Part shown: piece by piece, positions 6,331-40,117 of the stretch
Position numbering within the stretch: the first letter of the stretch is position 1
Layout of the letters: every line of letters starts with the position of its first letter
Assembly (NCBI GenBank): GCA_910586625.1
Contig: CAJUIZ010000003.1
Span: 55,254-119,253, forward strand
Direction: 5' to 3'
DNA length: 64,000 nucleotides
Source: an uncultured Christensenellaceae bacterium
Lineage (GTDB): Bacteria; Bacillota; Clostridia; Christensenellales; CAG-314
Position numbers and translations under genes: made by a program
The notes under the pieces: generated by a model
Database searches by the model: none
What the model saw: only the letters and a program-made list of their open reading frames with translations
What the model was told of the DNA's origin: nothing

Positions 6331-6756
6331 ATGAAAAAAATTATTTTAGCTATTATGATAATTGCAACGCTTTGCACGGCGTTTACCGCAACCTGCGCCG
6401 TAGGTCAAACGGCTGAAGAAAAAATATGCGAAATTGCAAAAAGCAACGACAAAATATTAGACGCGAAGTGCATAGTATACCAACGCACCTGTCTTGTTGC
6501 GATTAAAACTGAAAAATTCGTTACTCGCAGCGAATACGATCTGTATCTTGCAAACGTACGTCAACAGATTACTTCGGAATGCGAAATAGATAACGTTTAC
6601 GTTACGCGCAGTCCCAAGGTTATGAAAAAACTTAGCGAATTAGAAAAATTAAACGATAAGCAACGTCAACAGGCCATACAGGAAATAATAGAAAAAGAAC
6701 TGAACAAAGGTCTGCCGCCTATTAAGGACATTATGCCGAGATGTTTTAGTTGGTAA
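6331..6756 (+). CDS. secreted/lipoprotein, YhcN/YlaJ-like sporulation lipoprotein (tentative)
   Basis: Signal peptide MKKIILAIMIIATLCTAFTATC. Core pattern CIVYQRTCLVAIKTE...IDNVYVTRSPKVMKKL resembles YhcN/YlaJ family blocks as I recall them. RBS GGGAGA. Confidence 0.5.
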   Translation: MKKIILAIMIIATLCTAFTATCAVGQTAEEKICEIAKSNDKILDAKCIVYQRTCLVAIKTEKFVTRSEYDLYLANVRQQITSECEIDNVYVTRSPKVMKKLSELEKLNDKQRQQAIQEIIEKELNKGLPPIKDIMPRCFSW

Positions 6757-6763
6757 TAAATTT

Positions 6764-7052
6764 AATGCGCAACGCGCAATGCGTAATGCGTAATGAAGAA
6801 AGCCCGTTGGAACAACGGGCTTTCGTTTTTTATATAAGGTTACGCTTCGCTATATTTCTCGCTCGTTTGAAAACCTTCGCCGTCTTTTGGCGAAACTGCG
6901 CTACGCTCCGCTCGAAATGACGTTCCTTAGATTTCTCCACTCGCTTCGCTCGGTCGAAATGACGTTCATCTTCACTTCGTTCGATAAACGTTTCGGTAAA
7001 GGACACCGAATGTTGCGGCGTTCGCAAGTCTTCGACTTTCTCGGCTAAGGAC
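6764..7052 (+). repeat. composite modular repeat element, copy A
   Basis: Order of parts: five heptads (AATGCGC AACGCGC AATGCGT AATGCGT AATGAAG), a hairpin, AAGGTTACGCTTCGC, M1 (6931-6965), TCATCTTCACTTCGTTCGATAAACG, M2 (6991-7010), M3 (7017-7052). The order is colinear with copy D at 24332-24520. Confidence 0.8.
6798..6831 (+). terminator. rho-independent terminator embedded in repeat copy A
   Basis: GAAAGCCCGTTGG-aa-CAACGGGCTTTC followed by GTTTTTT, 40 nt after the stop of 6331-6756. Confidence 0.7.
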
Positions 7053-8892: not shown

Positions 8893-9002
8893 AATAATAC
8901 TCTCCTTTACTGCATTAAGTATATAACATTTGTTTTCGTTTTGCAACCTTTTGAACGAATGCAACAATGCAAAAGAAATAACAATGTGTCGCTGTGCTTT
9001 TT

Positions 9003-9200
9003 AATGCGTAATGCGTAATTAGAAAAGCCCGTTTGACAACGGGCTTGCGTTTTTATAAGGTGTCGCTGCGCCGAACTTCTCCGTACGCTTCGCTTTTTTA
9101 ATGCGTAACGCGCAATGCGCAATGCGTAATTAGGGTTACGCTTCGATAGACTTCTCGGCTACTTGTCATGTCGAGCGCAGTTTCGGCAAAGGTCGCCGAA
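9003..9200 (+). repeat. modular repeat region, copy B (two heptad arrays)
   Basis: Heptads at 9003-9023 plus hairpin AAGCCCGTTTGACAACGGGCTT (9025-9046). A partial M1 lies at 9075-9095. A second five-heptad array is at 9100-9134, and M2 (TTTCGGCAAAGGTCGCCGAA) is at 9181-9200. Confidence 0.75.
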
Positions 9201-11887: not shown

Positions 11888-12280
11888 CGTCATTGCGAGG
11901 CATTTATGCCGAAGCAATTTAGACATTTAAGCTACTGTATGAGTTTATAATACAAATCTTCCCAATTGGGATTCATCGTTTCTATCAAATTTAACTTTGC
12001 TTTGCGAGAACCGCCTTTTATTTGCTTTTCACGTTGGATTGCATCGGTAATATCCGCAAATATTTCGTAATATCCGAGTTTATCGACGTTGTACTTTTTA
12101 GTAAAGCCATCGACGGTTTTGCTTTTATGTTCCCAAACTCGACGAATTAAATTATTCGTTACACCGGTATACAATGTGCCGTTTCGAAAATTAAACATTA
12201 TATACACATAAGAAACGCGATTGTTCATATTTTACTTGTTTATTCTGGATTGCTTTGTCGCTTCGCTCCGCGCAATGACG
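11888..12280 (-). mobile_element. candidate minimal GIY-YIG unit: nuclease ORF bracketed by inverted hairpin motifs
   Basis: Left end is CGTCATTGCGAGG (11888-11900). Right end is CCGCGCAATGACG (12268-12280), whose reverse complement CGTCATTGCGCGG matches 12 of 13 positions. Each end sits in an ATTGC...GCAAT hairpin. I saw no target-site duplication. Confidence 0.4.
11932..12228 (-). CDS. GIY-YIG nuclease family protein (UPF0213/COG2827 type, 98 aa)
   Basis: YVYIMFNFRNGTLYTGVTNNLIRRVWEHK...REKQIKGGSRKAK is the classical GIY...YTG...R..EH...E core. Confidence 0.85.
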   Translation of the reverse strand: MNNRVSYVYIMFNFRNGTLYTGVTNNLIRRVWEHKSKTVDGFTKKYNVDKLGYYEIFADITDAIQREKQIKGGSRKAKLNLIETMNPNWEDLYYKLIQ

Positions 12281-18029: not shown

Positions 18030-18201
18030 AATGCGGGTGCGCTGCGCTTTTTTAATGCGTAATTAAAGGTTTCGCTGCGATAGACTTCTCCGCGCGCAAC
18101 ACTGACGTGTTGCTTGGTCGAAGTGACATTTGCAAGGTGTCGCTTCTCTTCTTAATGCGTAATGTCGGAAGCCCGTTGGAACAACGGTCTTACATTTTTT
18201 T
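18030..18201 (+). repeat. modular repeat region, copy C
   Basis: Heptads at 18054-18067. M1 at 18084-18129 carries an internal GCAACAC-tgac-GTGTTGC stem. Further heptads are at 18154-18167, followed by a degenerate hairpin (18169-18191) and T7. Confidence 0.75.
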
Positions 18202-18216
18202 ATAAGGTTTCGCTTG

Positions 18217-22230: not shown

Positions 22231-22629
22231 ATGATTAGATACGCGACAAGAAACGATTACGCAGAGCTTAGAGCCGACAAGCACATATCCGCAGAAGAAT
22301 TGACGCGCGCAATAGACTGTAACAGAATATTGGTTTTCGACGACGGCGGAATAACAGCGTGGCTTAGATACAATTTGTTTTGGGACAATACGCCCTTTTG
22401 CAATATGCTGTTCGTACAGGCTAATCGCCGCAATGAAAAAATTGCAACCGCGCTTGTCGCCCGTTGGGAGCAAGATATGCTGAACGCGGGATACGCCGCC
22501 GTTATGACTTCGGCTCAGGCAAACGAAAGCGGACTGATATTTTGGCGAAAAACAGGCTACGCCGACTGCGGACAGTTTAGACCTGTCGGCGAAGATACGG
22601 AAATAATCCTGTGCAAAAAACTGTCTTAA
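22231..22629 (+). CDS. GNAT family N-acetyltransferase (tentative)
   Basis: 132 aa with the pattern LFVQANRRNEKIATALVARWE...FWRKTGY, typical of an acetyl-CoA binding core. Confidence 0.65.
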   Translation: MIRYATRNDYAELRADKHISAEELTRAIDCNRILVFDDGGITAWLRYNLFWDNTPFCNMLFVQANRRNEKIATALVARWEQDMLNAGYAAVMTSAQANESGLIFWRKTGYADCGQFRPVGEDTEIILCKKLS

Positions 22630-22657
22630 AACGACACGGGAGCGAAAGGAAAACACT

Positions 22658-24340
22658 ATGAAAAACAAGTGGTACAAGGAAGCTGTATTTTACCAAATTT
22701 ATCCGCGAAGCTTTAAGGACTCCGACGGCGACGGCGTGGGCGACATACGCGGAATAATATCCAAAATAGACTATTTGGCGGATTTGGGCGTAGACGCTAT
22801 TTGGTTTTCGCCCCTATACGCAAGCCCCAACGCCGACTACGGCTATGATATATCCGACTACAAGGCGATAAACCCCGAATACGGTACGATGGACGACTTC
22901 GACGAGATGGTACGCCTGCTGCACGGCAAAGGCATACGGGTAATAATGGACCTTGTAATAAACCACACCAGCGACAAACACGAGTGGTTTGTCAATGCCC
23001 GTTCTTCACGCGATGACCCTTACCGCGACTACTACTACTTCCGCGACGGACGGGGCAAAAACGGCAAAAAACCGCCCAATAACTGGACGAGCTTTTTTGT
23101 GGGAAGCGCGTGGAAATACGAAGAAAACACAAAGCAATGGTATCTGCACCTGTTCGACGAAAACCAACCCGACCTTAACTACTTTAACCCGCGCGTTATG
23201 GAAGAAATAAAGGGTATTCTGCGCTTTTGGCTGGATAAGGGCGTGGACGGCTTCCGCTGCGACGTGATTACGCTGCTTTCCAAAACGGCGGGACTGCCCA
23301 GCGGCAAAAAGCGAATTGCGCTGACAGGCAGCGAATACTACATTGACGGCGACAGAATGGAAGAATATCTAGGCGAGCTTCAAGAAGTTCTGCGCGAATA
23401 CGACGCCTTTACCGTGGGCGAAAGCGTGTTTATTACGGTAGATAAAGCGTTACGCTACACAAGCGAAGACAACGAATATCTGACCACCGTGTTTTCCTTC
23501 GACCACGTTTCGGCGGACAATCGTTTCGGGATAAAGCAACTGCCGAAAAAATTTAATCTGCTTGACTTGAAGCGGGCGTTGACCCGTTGGCAGAACGGCT
23601 TGTACGGCAAAAGCTGGAATACGCTGTTTTGGGAAAACCACGACAGCGCGCGCATTGTGGGCAGGTACGTTAGCGACAGGGTAAACCGCGAAGAAGGGGC
23701 GAAGATGCTTGCGACCGTGCTGCTTACCCTTTCCGGAACGCCGTTTATCTATCAAGGGCAGGAGTTCGGCACGATTTCCGCAAGAATGACGGATATAAAG
23801 GACTACAAGGACGTGGACGCGCTACGCAGCTACGCTTTGCTTAAAAAGCTGTTCGGGAAGAAAAAAGCCATGAAAAAATTAGCGTACTGCTCGCGGGATA
23901 ACGCGCGTACCCCCGTGCAATGGGACGACACGCAAAACGCAGGCTTTACGACAGGCGAGCCTTGGCTTAAAGTTGCGCCGAGCTATCGAGATATTAACGC
24001 GAAGCAAGCGGAAAAGGACGGAAATTCCGTACTGCACTACTACAAAAAACTTATAAAGCTTCGCAAAGGCGACAAGGCGTTTGTGTACGGCAAGTATCAA
24101 GACCTGTTGCCCAAAAGTAAAAAGCTGCTTGCGTATCTCCGTGAAAGCGAATACGGAAAACTGATTGTGATAAACAATTTTTCGCTGAAAACCGCGAAAT
24201 TTACACTGCCGAAGGGTATAGACGGCGGCGCGTATACGCTGATTACAAGCAACTACGCCGATTCGCCGAAAAAACTTGGAACTACGGCTTTACGCCCATA
24301 TGAAAGTATTGTGTATAAAGCCGACGGCAAAAATGCGTAA
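22658..24340 (+). CDS. GH13 alpha-glucosidase / oligo-1,6-glucosidase
   Basis: FYQIYPRSF, DLVINHTS, DGFRCDVI, GESV and WENHDSAR conserved regions. Confidence 0.9.
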   Translation: MKNKWYKEAVFYQIYPRSFKDSDGDGVGDIRGIISKIDYLADLGVDAIWFSPLYASPNADYGYDISDYKAINPEYGTMDDFDEMVRLLHGKGIRVIMDLVINHTSDKHEWFVNARSSRDDPYRDYYYFRDGRGKNGKKPPNNWTSFFVGSAWKYEENTKQWYLHLFDENQPDLNYFNPRVMEEIKGILRFWLDKGVDGFRCDVITLLSKTAGLPSGKKRIALTGSEYYIDGDRMEEYLGELQEVLREYDAFTVGESVFITVDKALRYTSEDNEYLTTVFSFDHVSADNRFGIKQLPKKFNLLDLKRALTRWQNGLYGKSWNTLFWENHDSARIVGRYVSDRVNREEGAKMLATVLLTLSGTPFIYQGQEFGTISARMTDIKDYKDVDALRSYALLKKLFGKKKAMKKLAYCSRDNARTPVQWDDTQNAGFTTGEPWLKVAPSYRDINAKQAEKDGNSVLHYYKKLIKLRKGDKAFVYGKYQDLLPKSKKLLAYLRESEYGKLIVINNFSLKTAKFTLPKGIDGGAYTLITSNYADSPKKLGTTALRPYESIVYKADGKNA

Positions 24341-24520
24341 TGCGTAACGCTCAATGCGTAATGAAGGAAGCCCGTTTGACAACGGGCTTACATTTTCAGA
24401 AGGTTACGCTTCGCCGAATTTCTCCACGCGTTCGCCACGCTCGCTTGGTCGAAATGACTTTATCTTCACTTCGTTCGATAAACGTCGGCGTTTGCGACTG
24501 ACGTCGCTCGGCTAAGGACA
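24332..24520 (+). repeat. composite modular repeat element, copy D (colinear with copy A)
   Basis: Order of parts: five heptads at 24332-24366, hairpin at 24368-24389, AAGGTTACGCTTCGC, M1 at 24418-24458, TTATCTTCACTTCGTTCGATAAACG, M3 at 24487-24519. The first heptads overlap the last codons and the stop of the alpha-glucosidase gene. Confidence 0.8.
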
Positions 24521-24572
24521 TAGTTAAACGCTCGGTCAAAGTAACGTAGTAAGGCTGTGCGGCTGTCGCCTG

Positions 24573-24807
24573 GACTTCTCCACGCGGGGCTTCGCCCCTT
24601 GGTCGAAGTGACATAATAAATAGTTAATCGAACTGATGTAATAAATATTGGTCGAAATACTCCGCATTATTGCTTATTCATATATTAAGCAATTGTTTTG
24701 ATAGCATTTTTAGTATTATTACCGATAGTGATGCTCCGTTTCGCCAAAGGGCGGCGAAGGCATAGATGCACGGGCGTTCGCATTGCAAGCAACGCTTGGC
24801 TAAGGAC
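24573..24807 (+). repeat. additional hairpin modules (M1, M2, M3)
   Basis: M1 at 24573-24613 has stem GGGGC-ttc-GCCCC. M2 (TTTCGCCAAAGGGCGGCGAA) is at 24739-24758. An M3 variant is at 24773-24807. Confidence 0.7.
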
Positions 24808-24900
24808 ATAAACTAATAAAAACAACGCCTGACAAATTGTCGGGCGTTTATGATTGCCGTTTATTTTTTATGTGGGGGGGGATAAAAACATCACTTCTTC

Positions 24901-24998
24901 GTCAAAAGCATTTTCGCATATTCACTTTTCAATGCGACGTAACTTCTCAGTCAAAAGCATTTTAACATAATAACTTTTCAATGTAACGAATTTGCTTG
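24901..24998 (+). repeat. 49-bp tandem direct repeat, two units at about 70% identity
   Basis: Unit 1 starts GTCAAAAGCATTTTCGCATATTCACTTTTCAATGCGACG. Unit 2 starts GTCAAAAGCATTTTAACATAATAACTTTTCAATGTAACG. A G8 tract lies at 24874-24881. Confidence 0.7.
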
Positions 24999-25036: not shown

Positions 25037-25498
25037 TTATTCCGTCGGCAGCAGAGTTTTAACATAGTCGTCGGGCGGACTTTCCACGTAGGTTACATAT
25101 GAGAGTTCGCTCTCGTCGGCGCGGTAAATTTTTACCGTAAGCTTGCGCGTTTGCGCGGAATAACACACGCAGTTGAATACGATTGCAGGGACAAAGCCGT
25201 CCTTGGTAACCGTTACGGTTGCCGTACCCCATTCCGAAACGGACGCGTCGTAGCAGTTGGTTAAAGCATCCAGTTCGATTACGGGGGATACGCCCTTGTT
25301 ATCCGTATAGAAGGTTTTGCCCGCAACCGTAACGCGCGCGTTATGCACGGGAAGATTGTCCAAGCCCACCACCGTAACCCTTATATTTGTAGATTTTGCC
25401 GAAGCGGATATTGCCGACCTGTCTAACACGGTTAGCACGGACAATACCAACGCCAGTACCGTCAAAGCCGCGGCTACGCTTTTTAACGTTGCTTTCAT
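25037..25498 (-). CDS. secreted or membrane-anchored hypothetical protein (153 aa)
   Basis: N-terminal signal/anchor, then beta-rich sequence (IRVTVVGLDN..ARVTVAGKTFYTDNKG), carboxypeptidase-regulatory-like. Confidence 0.6.
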   Translation of the reverse strand: MKATLKSVAAALTVLALVLSVLTVLDRSAISASAKSTNIRVTVVGLDNLPVHNARVTVAGKTFYTDNKGVSPVIELDALTNCYDASVSEWGTATVTVTKDGFVPAIVFNCVCYSAQTRKLTVKIYRADESELSYVTYVESPPDDYVKTLLPTE

Positions 25499-38731: not shown

Positions 38732-40117
38732 TTATTTTAGATATCCCGCGGCGGATTGACGTATTTCCGCTAAAACCGCGTCCACGCTGCCAAGCGATTC
38801 TTTGTCGGGATCGACGTACTTGACAAGCGCGGTGGGAATACTCTTGTCGTTTACGTTCATCCAACCTGCGACGACGGGACGTACCTGCGCCGAAGCAAGC
38901 TGCTGCTGCACCACCGTATACAAATGCGTAACGGTTGCTTTCACCGTTTGGTTATCTTCCAAATCGGCAAATTCCTTAACCGTCGCATACTTGTCTACCG
39001 CGGCGAAATTGTTGGTGCATTTTTCAAACAAAGGCATACATTCGCCCGACACCAAAAACTTAACGAGTTGAAGAGCCTTGTCCTTATTGCCCGAGCGCGC
39101 GGGTATTACGAGATTTTCGCCGCCGATATTGGATACGGAGCCGATTGTCTCATTCTCGCTGGGAATGGGAATTGCGCGCATAGTCGTATACGTACGTGTT
39201 TTGAGATCGTTAATGGAAGAACTGTCCGCAAGACTGAACAGTATTTTGCCTGCGGGCGAAGCATTGCTTCCCGTAAAGCCAGTGCTTTCGTTGCGGATAG
39301 CTTTGGGCGACTTGTCGAACATATACTTGATCATATCGAAAGCCTTGGTAACTGTTCCGTCGTCGTTGGGCAATACAGTCTTGGTTGCTTCGTCGTACAT
39401 TGTACCGCCGGCAGCGGCAACGAATACCTGCGAATACCAACCGAGATAACCGCCGTTGCCCATACCGCCGAACAATGCGTAATCCGTTCCTATACCGCTT
39501 ATACTTTCGGCGAACGCCTTGAGATCGTTCCAAGTCTTTATGCTTTCAACACGCTCGATAGCTTGTTCGTCGCTCGTCAAACCGGTAGCTTTCTTGATTG
39601 TTTCCACATTGTAATACAATACCGAAGTATTGAGAGTAAGCGGAATTGCGTAAGTAGAACCGTTATAAACCGCCGTTTGCCACGCGCTCTTGTTAAACGC
39701 GCTTTTGTTAAAAGCAAACCCTGCGGCGTTATCCGATTCCACCGTTCCTTCGCGGGAATCGCTTTCCGTAATGTAATCGTCTAACTTCGTTATGTAACCG
39801 GGAGCTGCGTACTGCGCAAGGTTGGGTTGATCCAAATACATTACGTCGATGTCGATTTCCTTCTTGGTGCTTGTAAGCTTGCTGGAAACGGACGAATTGT
39901 AATTGTCCTTGCTTATCGACACGGGCTTGACCTTGATACCCGTTTCTTCGGTAAACTTGCCAAGCTTAGCTTTAAGCTCGTTATTCAAATCGTTCGTCAT
40001 AGCGTAATAGTAAAAAGATATCTCGTTGTCGCCTCCCTTATTGCACGCCGCAAGTACTGCAACCGCCGACGCGACAAGCAAGCATATTGTAAGAATTAAC
40101 GCTAATTTTCTTTTCAT
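38732..40117 (-). CDS. ABC transporter extracellular solute-binding lipoprotein (family 1)
   Basis: Lipobox LAAC, 461 aa, first gene of the transporter operon. Confidence 0.85.
   Translation of the reverse strand: MKRKLALILTICLLVASAVAVLAACNKGGDNEISFYYYAMTNDLNNELKAKLGKFTEETGIKVKPVSISKDNYNSSVSSKLTSTKKEIDIDVMYLDQPNLAQYAAPGYITKLDDYITESDSREGTVESDNAAGFAFNKSAFNKSAWQTAVYNGSTYAIPLTLNTSVLYYNVETIKKATGLTSDEQAIERVESIKTWNDLKAFAESISGIGTDYALFGGMGNGGYLGWYSQVFVAAAGGTMYDEATKTVLPNDDGTVTKAFDMIKYMFDKSPKAIRNESTGFTGSNASPAGKILFSLADSSSINDLKTRTYTTMRAIPIPSENETIGSVSNIGGENLVIPARSGNKDKALQLVKFLVSGECMPLFEKCTNNFAAVDKYATVKEFADLEDNQTVKATVTHLYTVVQQQLASAQVRPVVAGWMNVNDKSIPTALVKYVDPDKESLGSVDAVLAEIRQSAAGYLK

Follow-up and report, generated by a model that had tools for sequence, protein, structure and literature searches.

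Along a 64-kb stretch of DNA (referred to as the window), a seven-nucleotide unit, AAYGCGY, recurs head to tail in spacers between ordinary housekeeping genes of a spore-forming Firmicute, raising the question of whether these arrays are parts of gene terminators, binding sites for a protein or RNA, or modules of a repeat element. Six such arrays, each in + orientation, were located within four spacers at the positions given in the original prediction (Table 1). The two-unit pattern AATGCGYAAYGCGY, allowing at most one mismatch, matched the window 10 times as compared to 0.96 expected matches, in every case on the + strand, and none of 100 shuffles reached this number; one of the 10 matches, at 39474, is a lone intragenic site outside the repeat family. 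Tandem Repeats Finder reported period-7 arrays at 6763, 9002, 9100 and 24332, and beyond the AAYGCGY arrays, which comprise 2–5 units, a period-7 scan of the window yielded no further period-7 arrays. Independent ENA, Logan and NCBI assemblies gave identical arrays, showing that these are not assembly artefacts. With contiguous 7-nt copies recurring at dispersed non-coding sites, the arrays display the properties of intergenic heptanucleotide simple sequence repeats of the STRR/LSSR type, one of the six overlapping a stop codon by 9 nt. Two candidate assignments were rejected: a CRISPR array, because the units are 7 nt long and contiguous vs repeats of 23–50 nt with unique spacers, and a KOPS- or Chi-like polar motif, because single AAYGCGY heptamers outside the arrays lack strand skew (about 44 on + and about 45 on −).

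Taken together with the comparative data presented below, we consider it probable that the arrays represent the 5′ module of a young, lineage-specific, mosaic family of non-coding intergenic repeats. Three modules would make up this family: a heptanucleotide simple sequence repeat, (AAYGCGY)n, closing with an AATNNNN unit; an optional conserved hairpin with a T-run, similar in sequence to an intrinsic terminator; and the motif GGTKWCGCTKCG (module C), usually followed by a stem-loop. Blocks may have spread by duplicative insertion or by recombination at the GGTKWCGCTKCG motif, whereas array length would change by replication slippage. The feature is thus best read as a local combination of two known bacterial repeat kinds, without constituting a system of a new kind. 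Its distinctive trait lies in a fixed coupling between a heptamer array, a terminator-like hairpin and a covarying, REP-like stem-loop.

Table 1. Repeat modules identified in the window (A, heptad array; H, hairpin; C and E-D, downstream modules).
Feature	Position	Strand	Composition
A1	6764..6798	+	AATGCGC AACGCGC AATGCGT AATGCGT AATGAAG
H1	6798..6831	+	12-bp stem GAAAGCCCGTTG/CAACGGGCTTTC, loop GAA, then T6
Module C and two E-D stem-loops	6838..6966	+	C = GGTTACGCTTCGC (6838-6850); repeat families D2, D8
C-like	8990..9002	+	CGCTGTGC plus T5; left border of A2
A2	9003..9023	+	AATGCGT AATGCGT AATTAGA
H2	9025..9054	+	9-bp stem, loop TGAC, plus GCGTTTTT
Module C and truncated E	9059..9099	+	C GGTGTCGCTGCGC, E CGAACTTCTCCGTA, CGCTTCGC, T6
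A3	9100..9133	+	AATGCGT AACGCGC AATGCGC AATGCGT AATTAG; without hairpin
Module C and E start	9134..9157	+	C GGTTACGCTTCGA, E TAGACTTCTCG
C-like	18035..18053	+	GGGTGCGCTGCGC plus T6; left border of A4
A4	18054..18067	+	AATGCGT AATTAAA; minimal, without hairpin
Complete C-E-D unit	18068..18130	+	GGTTTCGCTGCGA TAGACTTCTCC ... GGTCGAAGTGAC; outer stem ACTTC/GAAGT, −17.0 kcal/mol
C-like	18136..18153	+	GGTGTCGCTTCTC plus TTCTT; left border of A5
A5	18154..18168	+	AATGCGT AATGTCGG
H3	18169..18201	+	Degenerate copy with AACGGTCTT arm, then ACA and T7; antisense relative to PGI and HisRS
C-like	18206..18216	+	GGTTTCGCTTG; abuts PGI stop codon
A6	24332..24366	+	AATGCGT AATGCGT AACGCTC AATGCGT AATGAAG
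H4	24368..24395	+	9-bp stem, loop TGAC, weak T-run (ACATTTT); −15.6 kcal/mol
Module C, E-D and D2-type units	24402..24615	+	E-D 24402-24461; GGCTAAGGACAT at 24510; E-D 24571-24615
Isolated E-D stem-loop	63629..63667	+	TGGATTTCTCC...AGTCGAAATGACATA; repeat family D8; without heptads

The arrays had been noted to place stop codons in successive frames, with the array at 9003 described as the one site where all three are closed. Complete three-frame closure was confirmed at 9003, but the site is not the sole case, as the arrays at 9100 and 18054 have the same property once their terminal AATTAG and AATTAAA are counted. On the − strand of the arrays at least one reading frame stays open, and in most arrays two do. 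Because any heptamer containing a stop triplet automatically yields stops in three forward frames, the pattern provides no evidence of design, and the combination of forward three-frame stops with an open reverse strand has already been described for TAACTGA repeats (PMC4679880). The stop codons are probably a by-product of the heptamer sequence.

The hairpin module follows four of the arrays, with arms AAGCCCGTT/AACGGGCTT at 6800–6822, 9025–9046, 18169–18191 and 24368–24389, and the four heptad-hairpin composites share 67–88% identity over 48 nt (repeat family D1). The expectation that one and the same hairpin with a T-run follows these arrays held for all four sites, but not with equal quality: the 18.1 kb copy is mismatched and weak, and the T-run of the 24.4 kb copy is poor (ACATTTTCAG). 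H1, with a predicted fold of −21.2 kcal/mol (z −6.5), was the best + strand terminator-like site in the scanned region, and H2 received a terminator-like score on the − strand as well. H3 carries a G>T mismatch and is predicted at −10.7 kcal/mol, vs −14.6 to −21.2 kcal/mol for the other three hairpins; in L037 and L038 it has acquired a second mismatch. A GC-rich hairpin followed by a U-run is thus evident in H1 and H2 and marginal in H4, H3 being degenerate. With a stem of 9–12 bp, a loop of 3–4 nt and a T-run, and with stabilities in the intrinsic-terminator range in all copies but one, the module resembles an intrinsic terminator and would terminate + strand transcripts. It differs from ordinary terminators in that the same hairpin recurs as part of a repeat and that two copies lack a co-oriented gene: upstream of H1 and H4 lie the co-oriented YhcN-like and amylase genes, respectively, whereas H2 and H3 are located between − strand genes. 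Judged from sequence, heptads and hairpin may function as a portable stop-plus-terminator cassette, as originally proposed. A pair of DNA-uptake sequences was ruled out as source of the hairpin, since beyond the four hairpins the 9-mer arm shows no over-representation. Of note, the T-run varies in length and shifts the frame of the spurious open reading frames across the composite, such that only about 12 residues would be conserved between paralogous copies, a stretch too short for a significant protein match.

Downstream of heptads and hairpin, the spacers follow a common plan. All six arrays lie immediately 5′ of module C, the contact being direct at 9100 and 18054 and mediated by the hairpin, its T-run and ATAA at the other four, which supports the earlier suggestion that the arrays make up the 5′-terminal part of a larger modular element. 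As a rule, module C is followed by the stem-loop GA-NN-TCTCC ... GGTCGA-NN-TGAC (E-D), which ends with GGTCGARRTGAC and whose outer 5-bp stem covaries in this genome and its relatives (ACTTC/GAAGT, ATTTC/GAAAT, ATCTC/GAGAT, ACCTC/GAGGT). The two stem-loops downstream of A1, at about 6853–6921 and at 6930–6963, each end with (G)CTCGAAATGAC or GGTCGAAATGAC. A2 to A5 are in addition preceded by the C-like sequence CGCTKCGM and five or six T residues, such that the spacers read as chains of modules. As candidate target-site duplications, these direct repeats with CGCTKCGM flank four of the six arrays, A1 and A6 being without them, and the similarity within pairs (9–11 of 13) is marginally higher than that across pairs (7–11 of 13). 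Terminal inverted repeats of the MITE type were not consistently found around the units. The combination of E-D palindromes with module C, heptads and hairpin conforms to the mosaic organization of BIME, REP and REPIN sequences.

Heptads and module C are also related in sequence, as the GCGTAAC register of the heptad, read in reverse complement, exactly matches the seven bases with which module C begins, GTTACGC. The complementary pairs comprise 9103–9109 with 9135–9141 and 6788–6794 with 6839–6845 (GCGTAAC or GCGTAAT vs GTTACGC), and minimum-free-energy folds pair the heptads with module C in A1 and A3, the A1 pairing enclosing the hairpin. The perfect GTTACGC complement is present in only three of the six C modules. 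We regard this complementarity as a lead toward an inverted-duplication origin or a guide/target role, and not as a finding.

The age of the blocks can be read from related genomes. The HisRS relatives are 'Clostridiales bacterium' MAGs and 'Corallococcus sp. CAG:1435', and the conserved gene order of the relatives made it possible to compare spacer by spacer. The spacer between PGI and HisRS, which holds 217 nt of modules in the window, measures 9 nt in L020 (HisRS 85% identical) and 16 nt in L021 (77%). In strain L027 it comprises 45 nt and holds only a lone GGTTTCGCTTGC, the GGTTTCGCTTG next to the PGI stop codon being the only part of the window's spacer that is common to this strain. L023–L026 and L029–L031 carry 128 nt of unrelated sequence at this junction, marking it as a repeated insertion target. 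Likewise, the hydrolase-M3 spacer has a length of 12 nt in L021 and of 348 nt in the window. Blocks that are missing from tight orthologous junctions of relatives point to recent insertions, and the presence/absence polymorphism extends to strains as well as sister species. These data support the view, put forward in the original prediction, that we are dealing with a repeat element and not merely with gene terminators. A T-box leader upstream of HisRS was ruled out, given that the region lacks an Rfam match and the relatives' spacers are only 9–16 nt long.

The same comparison bears on the simplest alternative, in which ordinary terminators evolved independently and simple sequence repeats came to lie beside them by coincidence. 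Although two of the hairpins are located directly 3′ of + strand genes, the 9-nt arms and their flanks (AATGAAGRAAGCCCGTT ... TTTTATAAGGT) are identical across copies, two copies are antisense to both neighbours, and the blocks are inserted where relatives have spacers of 9–16 nt. Independent origin is therefore extremely improbable and appears effectively refuted by the comparative data. We likewise asked whether array and hairpin could be the 3′ part of a + strand small RNA gene that is antisense to the − strand operons and uses the hairpin and U-run as its own terminator. That hairpin and T-run have + orientation even between two − strand neighbours is in keeping with such a gene. However, two arrays lack the hairpin, an upstream promoter-like site is not consistent, the sequence upstream of the arrays differs between copies, and copies are missing in sister strains. 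Moreover, Rfam searches at the gathering threshold and at E ≤ 5 returned no relevant family, only tRNAs passing and the sub-threshold matches being driven by the terminator hairpin, leaving a small RNA gene very improbable.

Two cases illustrate the effects on neighbouring genes. The YhcN-like gene, encoding a spore-lipoprotein-like protein (YhcN/YlaJ-like, 6331–6756), ends 8 nt before the start of A1. In L027 the gene is followed by a terminator of its own and then by C-E-D, and in L023–L026 both this terminator and the hairpin of the element are present. In the window, the gene is followed by heptads and the latter hairpin, and no other terminator-like hairpin was found after it. From this series, the element's hairpin seems to have replaced the ancestral terminator. 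The second case concerns the amylase gene, the stop codon of which is the TAA at 24338–24340, provided by the first heptad of A6; the encoded C-terminus reads ...ADGKNA here vs ...ADSRTKQ and ...ADGKAMNS in other strains. As a side observation, in some strains the amylase ORF is annotated together with the acetyltransferase ORF upstream of it as a single 702-residue fusion (P0156; variant of 22231–24340). H1 and H4 are the first hairpins after the two + strand genes, whereas at 9.0 and 18.1 kb the T-run points away from the − strand genes, and the hairpin in the PGI-HisRS spacer (H3) is decaying. Filled and empty sites in close relatives thus show small non-coding repeats remodelling gene ends in an uncultured gut bacterium, turning operon junctions of 9–16 nt into spacers of 200–350 nt, giving an enzyme a new stop codon and C-terminus and, as the arrangement of hairpins suggests, replacing a native terminator.

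The arrays also differ between close relatives in the number of units. A1 has four units here, six in L030 and one degenerate unit before the same hairpin in L023–L026, and A3 has four units here and three in L029 and L031. Because L029 and L031 derive from the same run through two assemblers and agree in their arrays, the differences in unit number are not assembly noise. This in-register polymorphism is typical of STRR/LSSR repeats. Whole units are gained and lost in the heptad module, in line with replication slippage as the most likely mechanism. Among the intergenic repeats of many bacteria heptamers are over-represented, and slippage has been put forward to explain this (PMC4692102, PMC4679880). 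Slippage alone does not explain A2 in L029 and L031, which reads AATTCGT AACACGC AAGGCAT AATTAGA and thus carries five substitutions and one extra unit between identical flanks; conversion from another array may be involved. A6 is absent in L023, L024 and L027. At this site, L027 contains a different heptad directly before module C (AATAGTT AAAAGTG AATAGTG AATAGGT), suggesting that the boundary 5′ of module C is prone to the growth of heptamers of any sequence.

Variable unit number is also what would be expected if the heptads were binding sites or phase-variable switches, with a protein or RNA binding AATGCGY and the number of units tuning adjacent genes. Against such a role, the arrays are located at gene 3′ ends or in operon spacers, at no fixed distance from a promoter or start codon, close strains can lack whole arrays despite unchanged flanking genes, and the A6 site of L027 is occupied by another heptad; neither do the scattered heptamers outside the arrays favour one strand. 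Our analysis of these loci turned up no evidence supporting a protein- or RNA-binding array, and we consider this function quite unlikely.

A further property to be explained is the uniform orientation of the copies. As originally claimed, all copies are on the + strand, even at 9.0 and 18.1 kb where both flanking genes are on the − strand. Yet these represent just four independent loci (p about 0.125), and the bias at the level of arrays is inseparable from chance. Modules of the wider family are also in + orientation in the 9 kb to the right of the window, including the gyrB-gyrA spacer, and the 10 kb to its left contain no family modules. Over the sampled region of about 84 kb, seven of seven family loci thus have the same orientation (p about 0.016), which is suggestive for a region representing one replichore and one dominant gene direction. 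The GC skew of the + strand is negative throughout and most genes, among them gyrB-gyrA, are on the − strand, which is therefore most likely the leading strand. The uniform orientation could result from strand-specific spread tied to replication, or from selection against sense-strand terminators in − strand operons. Given that modules devoid of terminators, such as the one in the gyrB-gyrA spacer, share the orientation, strand-specific spread is slightly favoured.

Strand-specific spread tied to replication is found in the IS200/IS605 and RAYT systems, and the blocks could be a non-autonomous, single-stranded DNA transposable element, REPIN- or PATE-like and moved in trans by a Y1 transposase of the IS200/IS605 or RAYT type. 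According to this model, the transposase would recognise the covarying stem-loop as its hairpin, GCGTAAC/GTTACGC would be a guide/target pair, given their exact reverse complementarity and their pairing in the A1 and A3 folds, and insertion into one replication strand would account for the single orientation of all seven loci under a uniform skew. Indeed, REP arrays flip orientation between replichores (PMC3116915), and the stem-loops are structured and covarying. Nesting fits as well: an element of about 160 nt (ACTCCGCATTATTGCTTATTCATATAYTAAGCAATTG ... GGCTAAGGACAT) is inserted in a D-type unit at 24650–24812, and in L027 it resides elsewhere, in the hydrolase-M3 spacer; its occurrence at different loci in different strains marks it as a second small mobile repeat. 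On the other hand, the annotated stretches revealed neither a transposase nor any other gene for mobilisation, and no Y1 transposase or RAYT was among the genes called in L001, L032 and L035. Sampling one replichore gave an orientation flip no opportunity to appear, half of the C modules deviate from the perfect GTTACGC, and REPINs are inverted doublets vs the all-direct units here. We therefore regard mobilisation of this kind as unlikely, albeit the strongest competitor of the mosaic-repeat reading. A more radical version, in which the whole block is a miniature element of a novel type that propagates itself in a strand-specific manner and the heptads are both made and used by the mobility mechanism, seems rather remote. 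The GCGTAAY copies, complementary to the GTTACGC with which the element's module C begins, could then, for example, act as a register-shifting guide/target pair or represent footprints of repeated insertion. If this were true, a three-frame stop and a one-way terminator would be delivered to each new site, and only copies whose orientation spares the operons of the host would persist.

Within the preferred reading, both halves of the mosaic have known counterparts. The BIME architecture, described by Gilson and Bachellier, is an extragenic mosaic of short modules around imperfect palindromes. A hallmark of BIME, REP and REPIN sequences is their presence in hundreds of copies genome-wide. Like those of Enterobacteriaceae (BIME/REP) and Pseudomonas (REPIN), the modules described here are arranged as extragenic mosaics around imperfect palindromes, cluster and nest in spacers within operons or between convergent genes, and are present in a strain-variable manner, with an orientation that may be linked to the replichore (PMC3116915). 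They differ in lacking sequence similarity, in including a heptamer and a canonical terminator hairpin as modules, in consisting of direct (+) units throughout instead of alternating units or inverted doublets and, compared to REPIN systems, in the absence of a RAYT gene from the called genes noted above. A putative likeness to IS200/IS605-derived PATEs comprises a hairpin-based structure, the lack of terminal inverted repeats and possibly a one-strand bias; unlike PATEs, no transposase and no defined cleavage or target sites were identified here.

The named heptamer systems comprise the STRRs of Calothrix and Nostoc, GGGAATC of Xanthomonas, GGGGAYT of Nostoc, and TAACTGA of Beggiatoaceae, Cyanobacteria and Bacteroidetes. 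With these systems our arrays share tandem 7-nt units, typically in 2–6 copies at many intergenic sites, variation in length and sequence among close relatives, a patchy occurrence across phyla, and forward stops in all frames with a largely open reverse strand (PMC4692102, PMC4679880). They differ from these repeats in having AAYGCGY as unit and a gut member of the Clostridia as host, and in that each array is linked to GGTKWCGCTKCG and in many cases to a conserved hairpin of terminator-like sequence. In Maribeggiatoa the repeats directly precede start codons, an arrangement not shared by the arrays described here. The mosaic brings together two repeat classes usually studied apart, REP-like mosaics of hairpins and heptameric simple sequence repeats, and this link may bear on why heptamer arrays arise where they do. 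For MAG annotation, it implies that such arrays yield spurious ORFs and strain-variable spacer lengths. The locus is of value mainly because the comparison cleanly documents insertion, changes in array length, putative terminator replacement and stop-codon capture.

How widely the composite is distributed was assessed in genomes and metagenomes. The heptad-hairpin composite had no true match in 185,579 GTDB species genomes, JGI metagenomes and IMG/VR: the GTDB scan returned 13 chance matches and two Selenomonadaceae glyQ-glyS linkers, the JGI scan 3 chance matches, and the module C+E pattern had no match in IMG/VR. Accordingly, across the genomes and metagenomes scanned, the composite was found only in this species cluster. 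A literature search for the exact sequences gave unrelated primer matches only. Bare (AATGCGY)3–6 arrays occur in 14 unrelated IMG/VR viral contigs (L041–L054; GC 32–62%), indicating that the AATGCGY unit is recurrent but that its link to the hairpin is local. In two of these contigs, L041 and L052, an inverted ACGCATT array is located beside the forward array. The two Selenomonadaceae MAGs (L008, 866–960; L010, 4318–4230, − strand) carry AATGCGY heptads followed by AAAGCTY heptads between glyQ and glyS, in frame and free of stops, which suggests a fused GlyQS protein with a linker derived from a simple sequence repeat.

Several smaller features of the window vary between strains or are repetitive in their own right. 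A mini-ORF of 98 residues with a GIY-YIG domain (11932–12228, − strand) is strain-variable, being absent in L025, L038 and L039. At 24888–24985, a 49-nt unit is tandemly duplicated with 80% identity (repeat family D18), 3′ of the stop codon at 25037 that ends the − strand gene 25037–25498; no domain was recognised in this gene. Finally, the G homopolymer at 24874–24881 is one base shorter in L001 and one base longer in L029 and L030, all near-identical strains.
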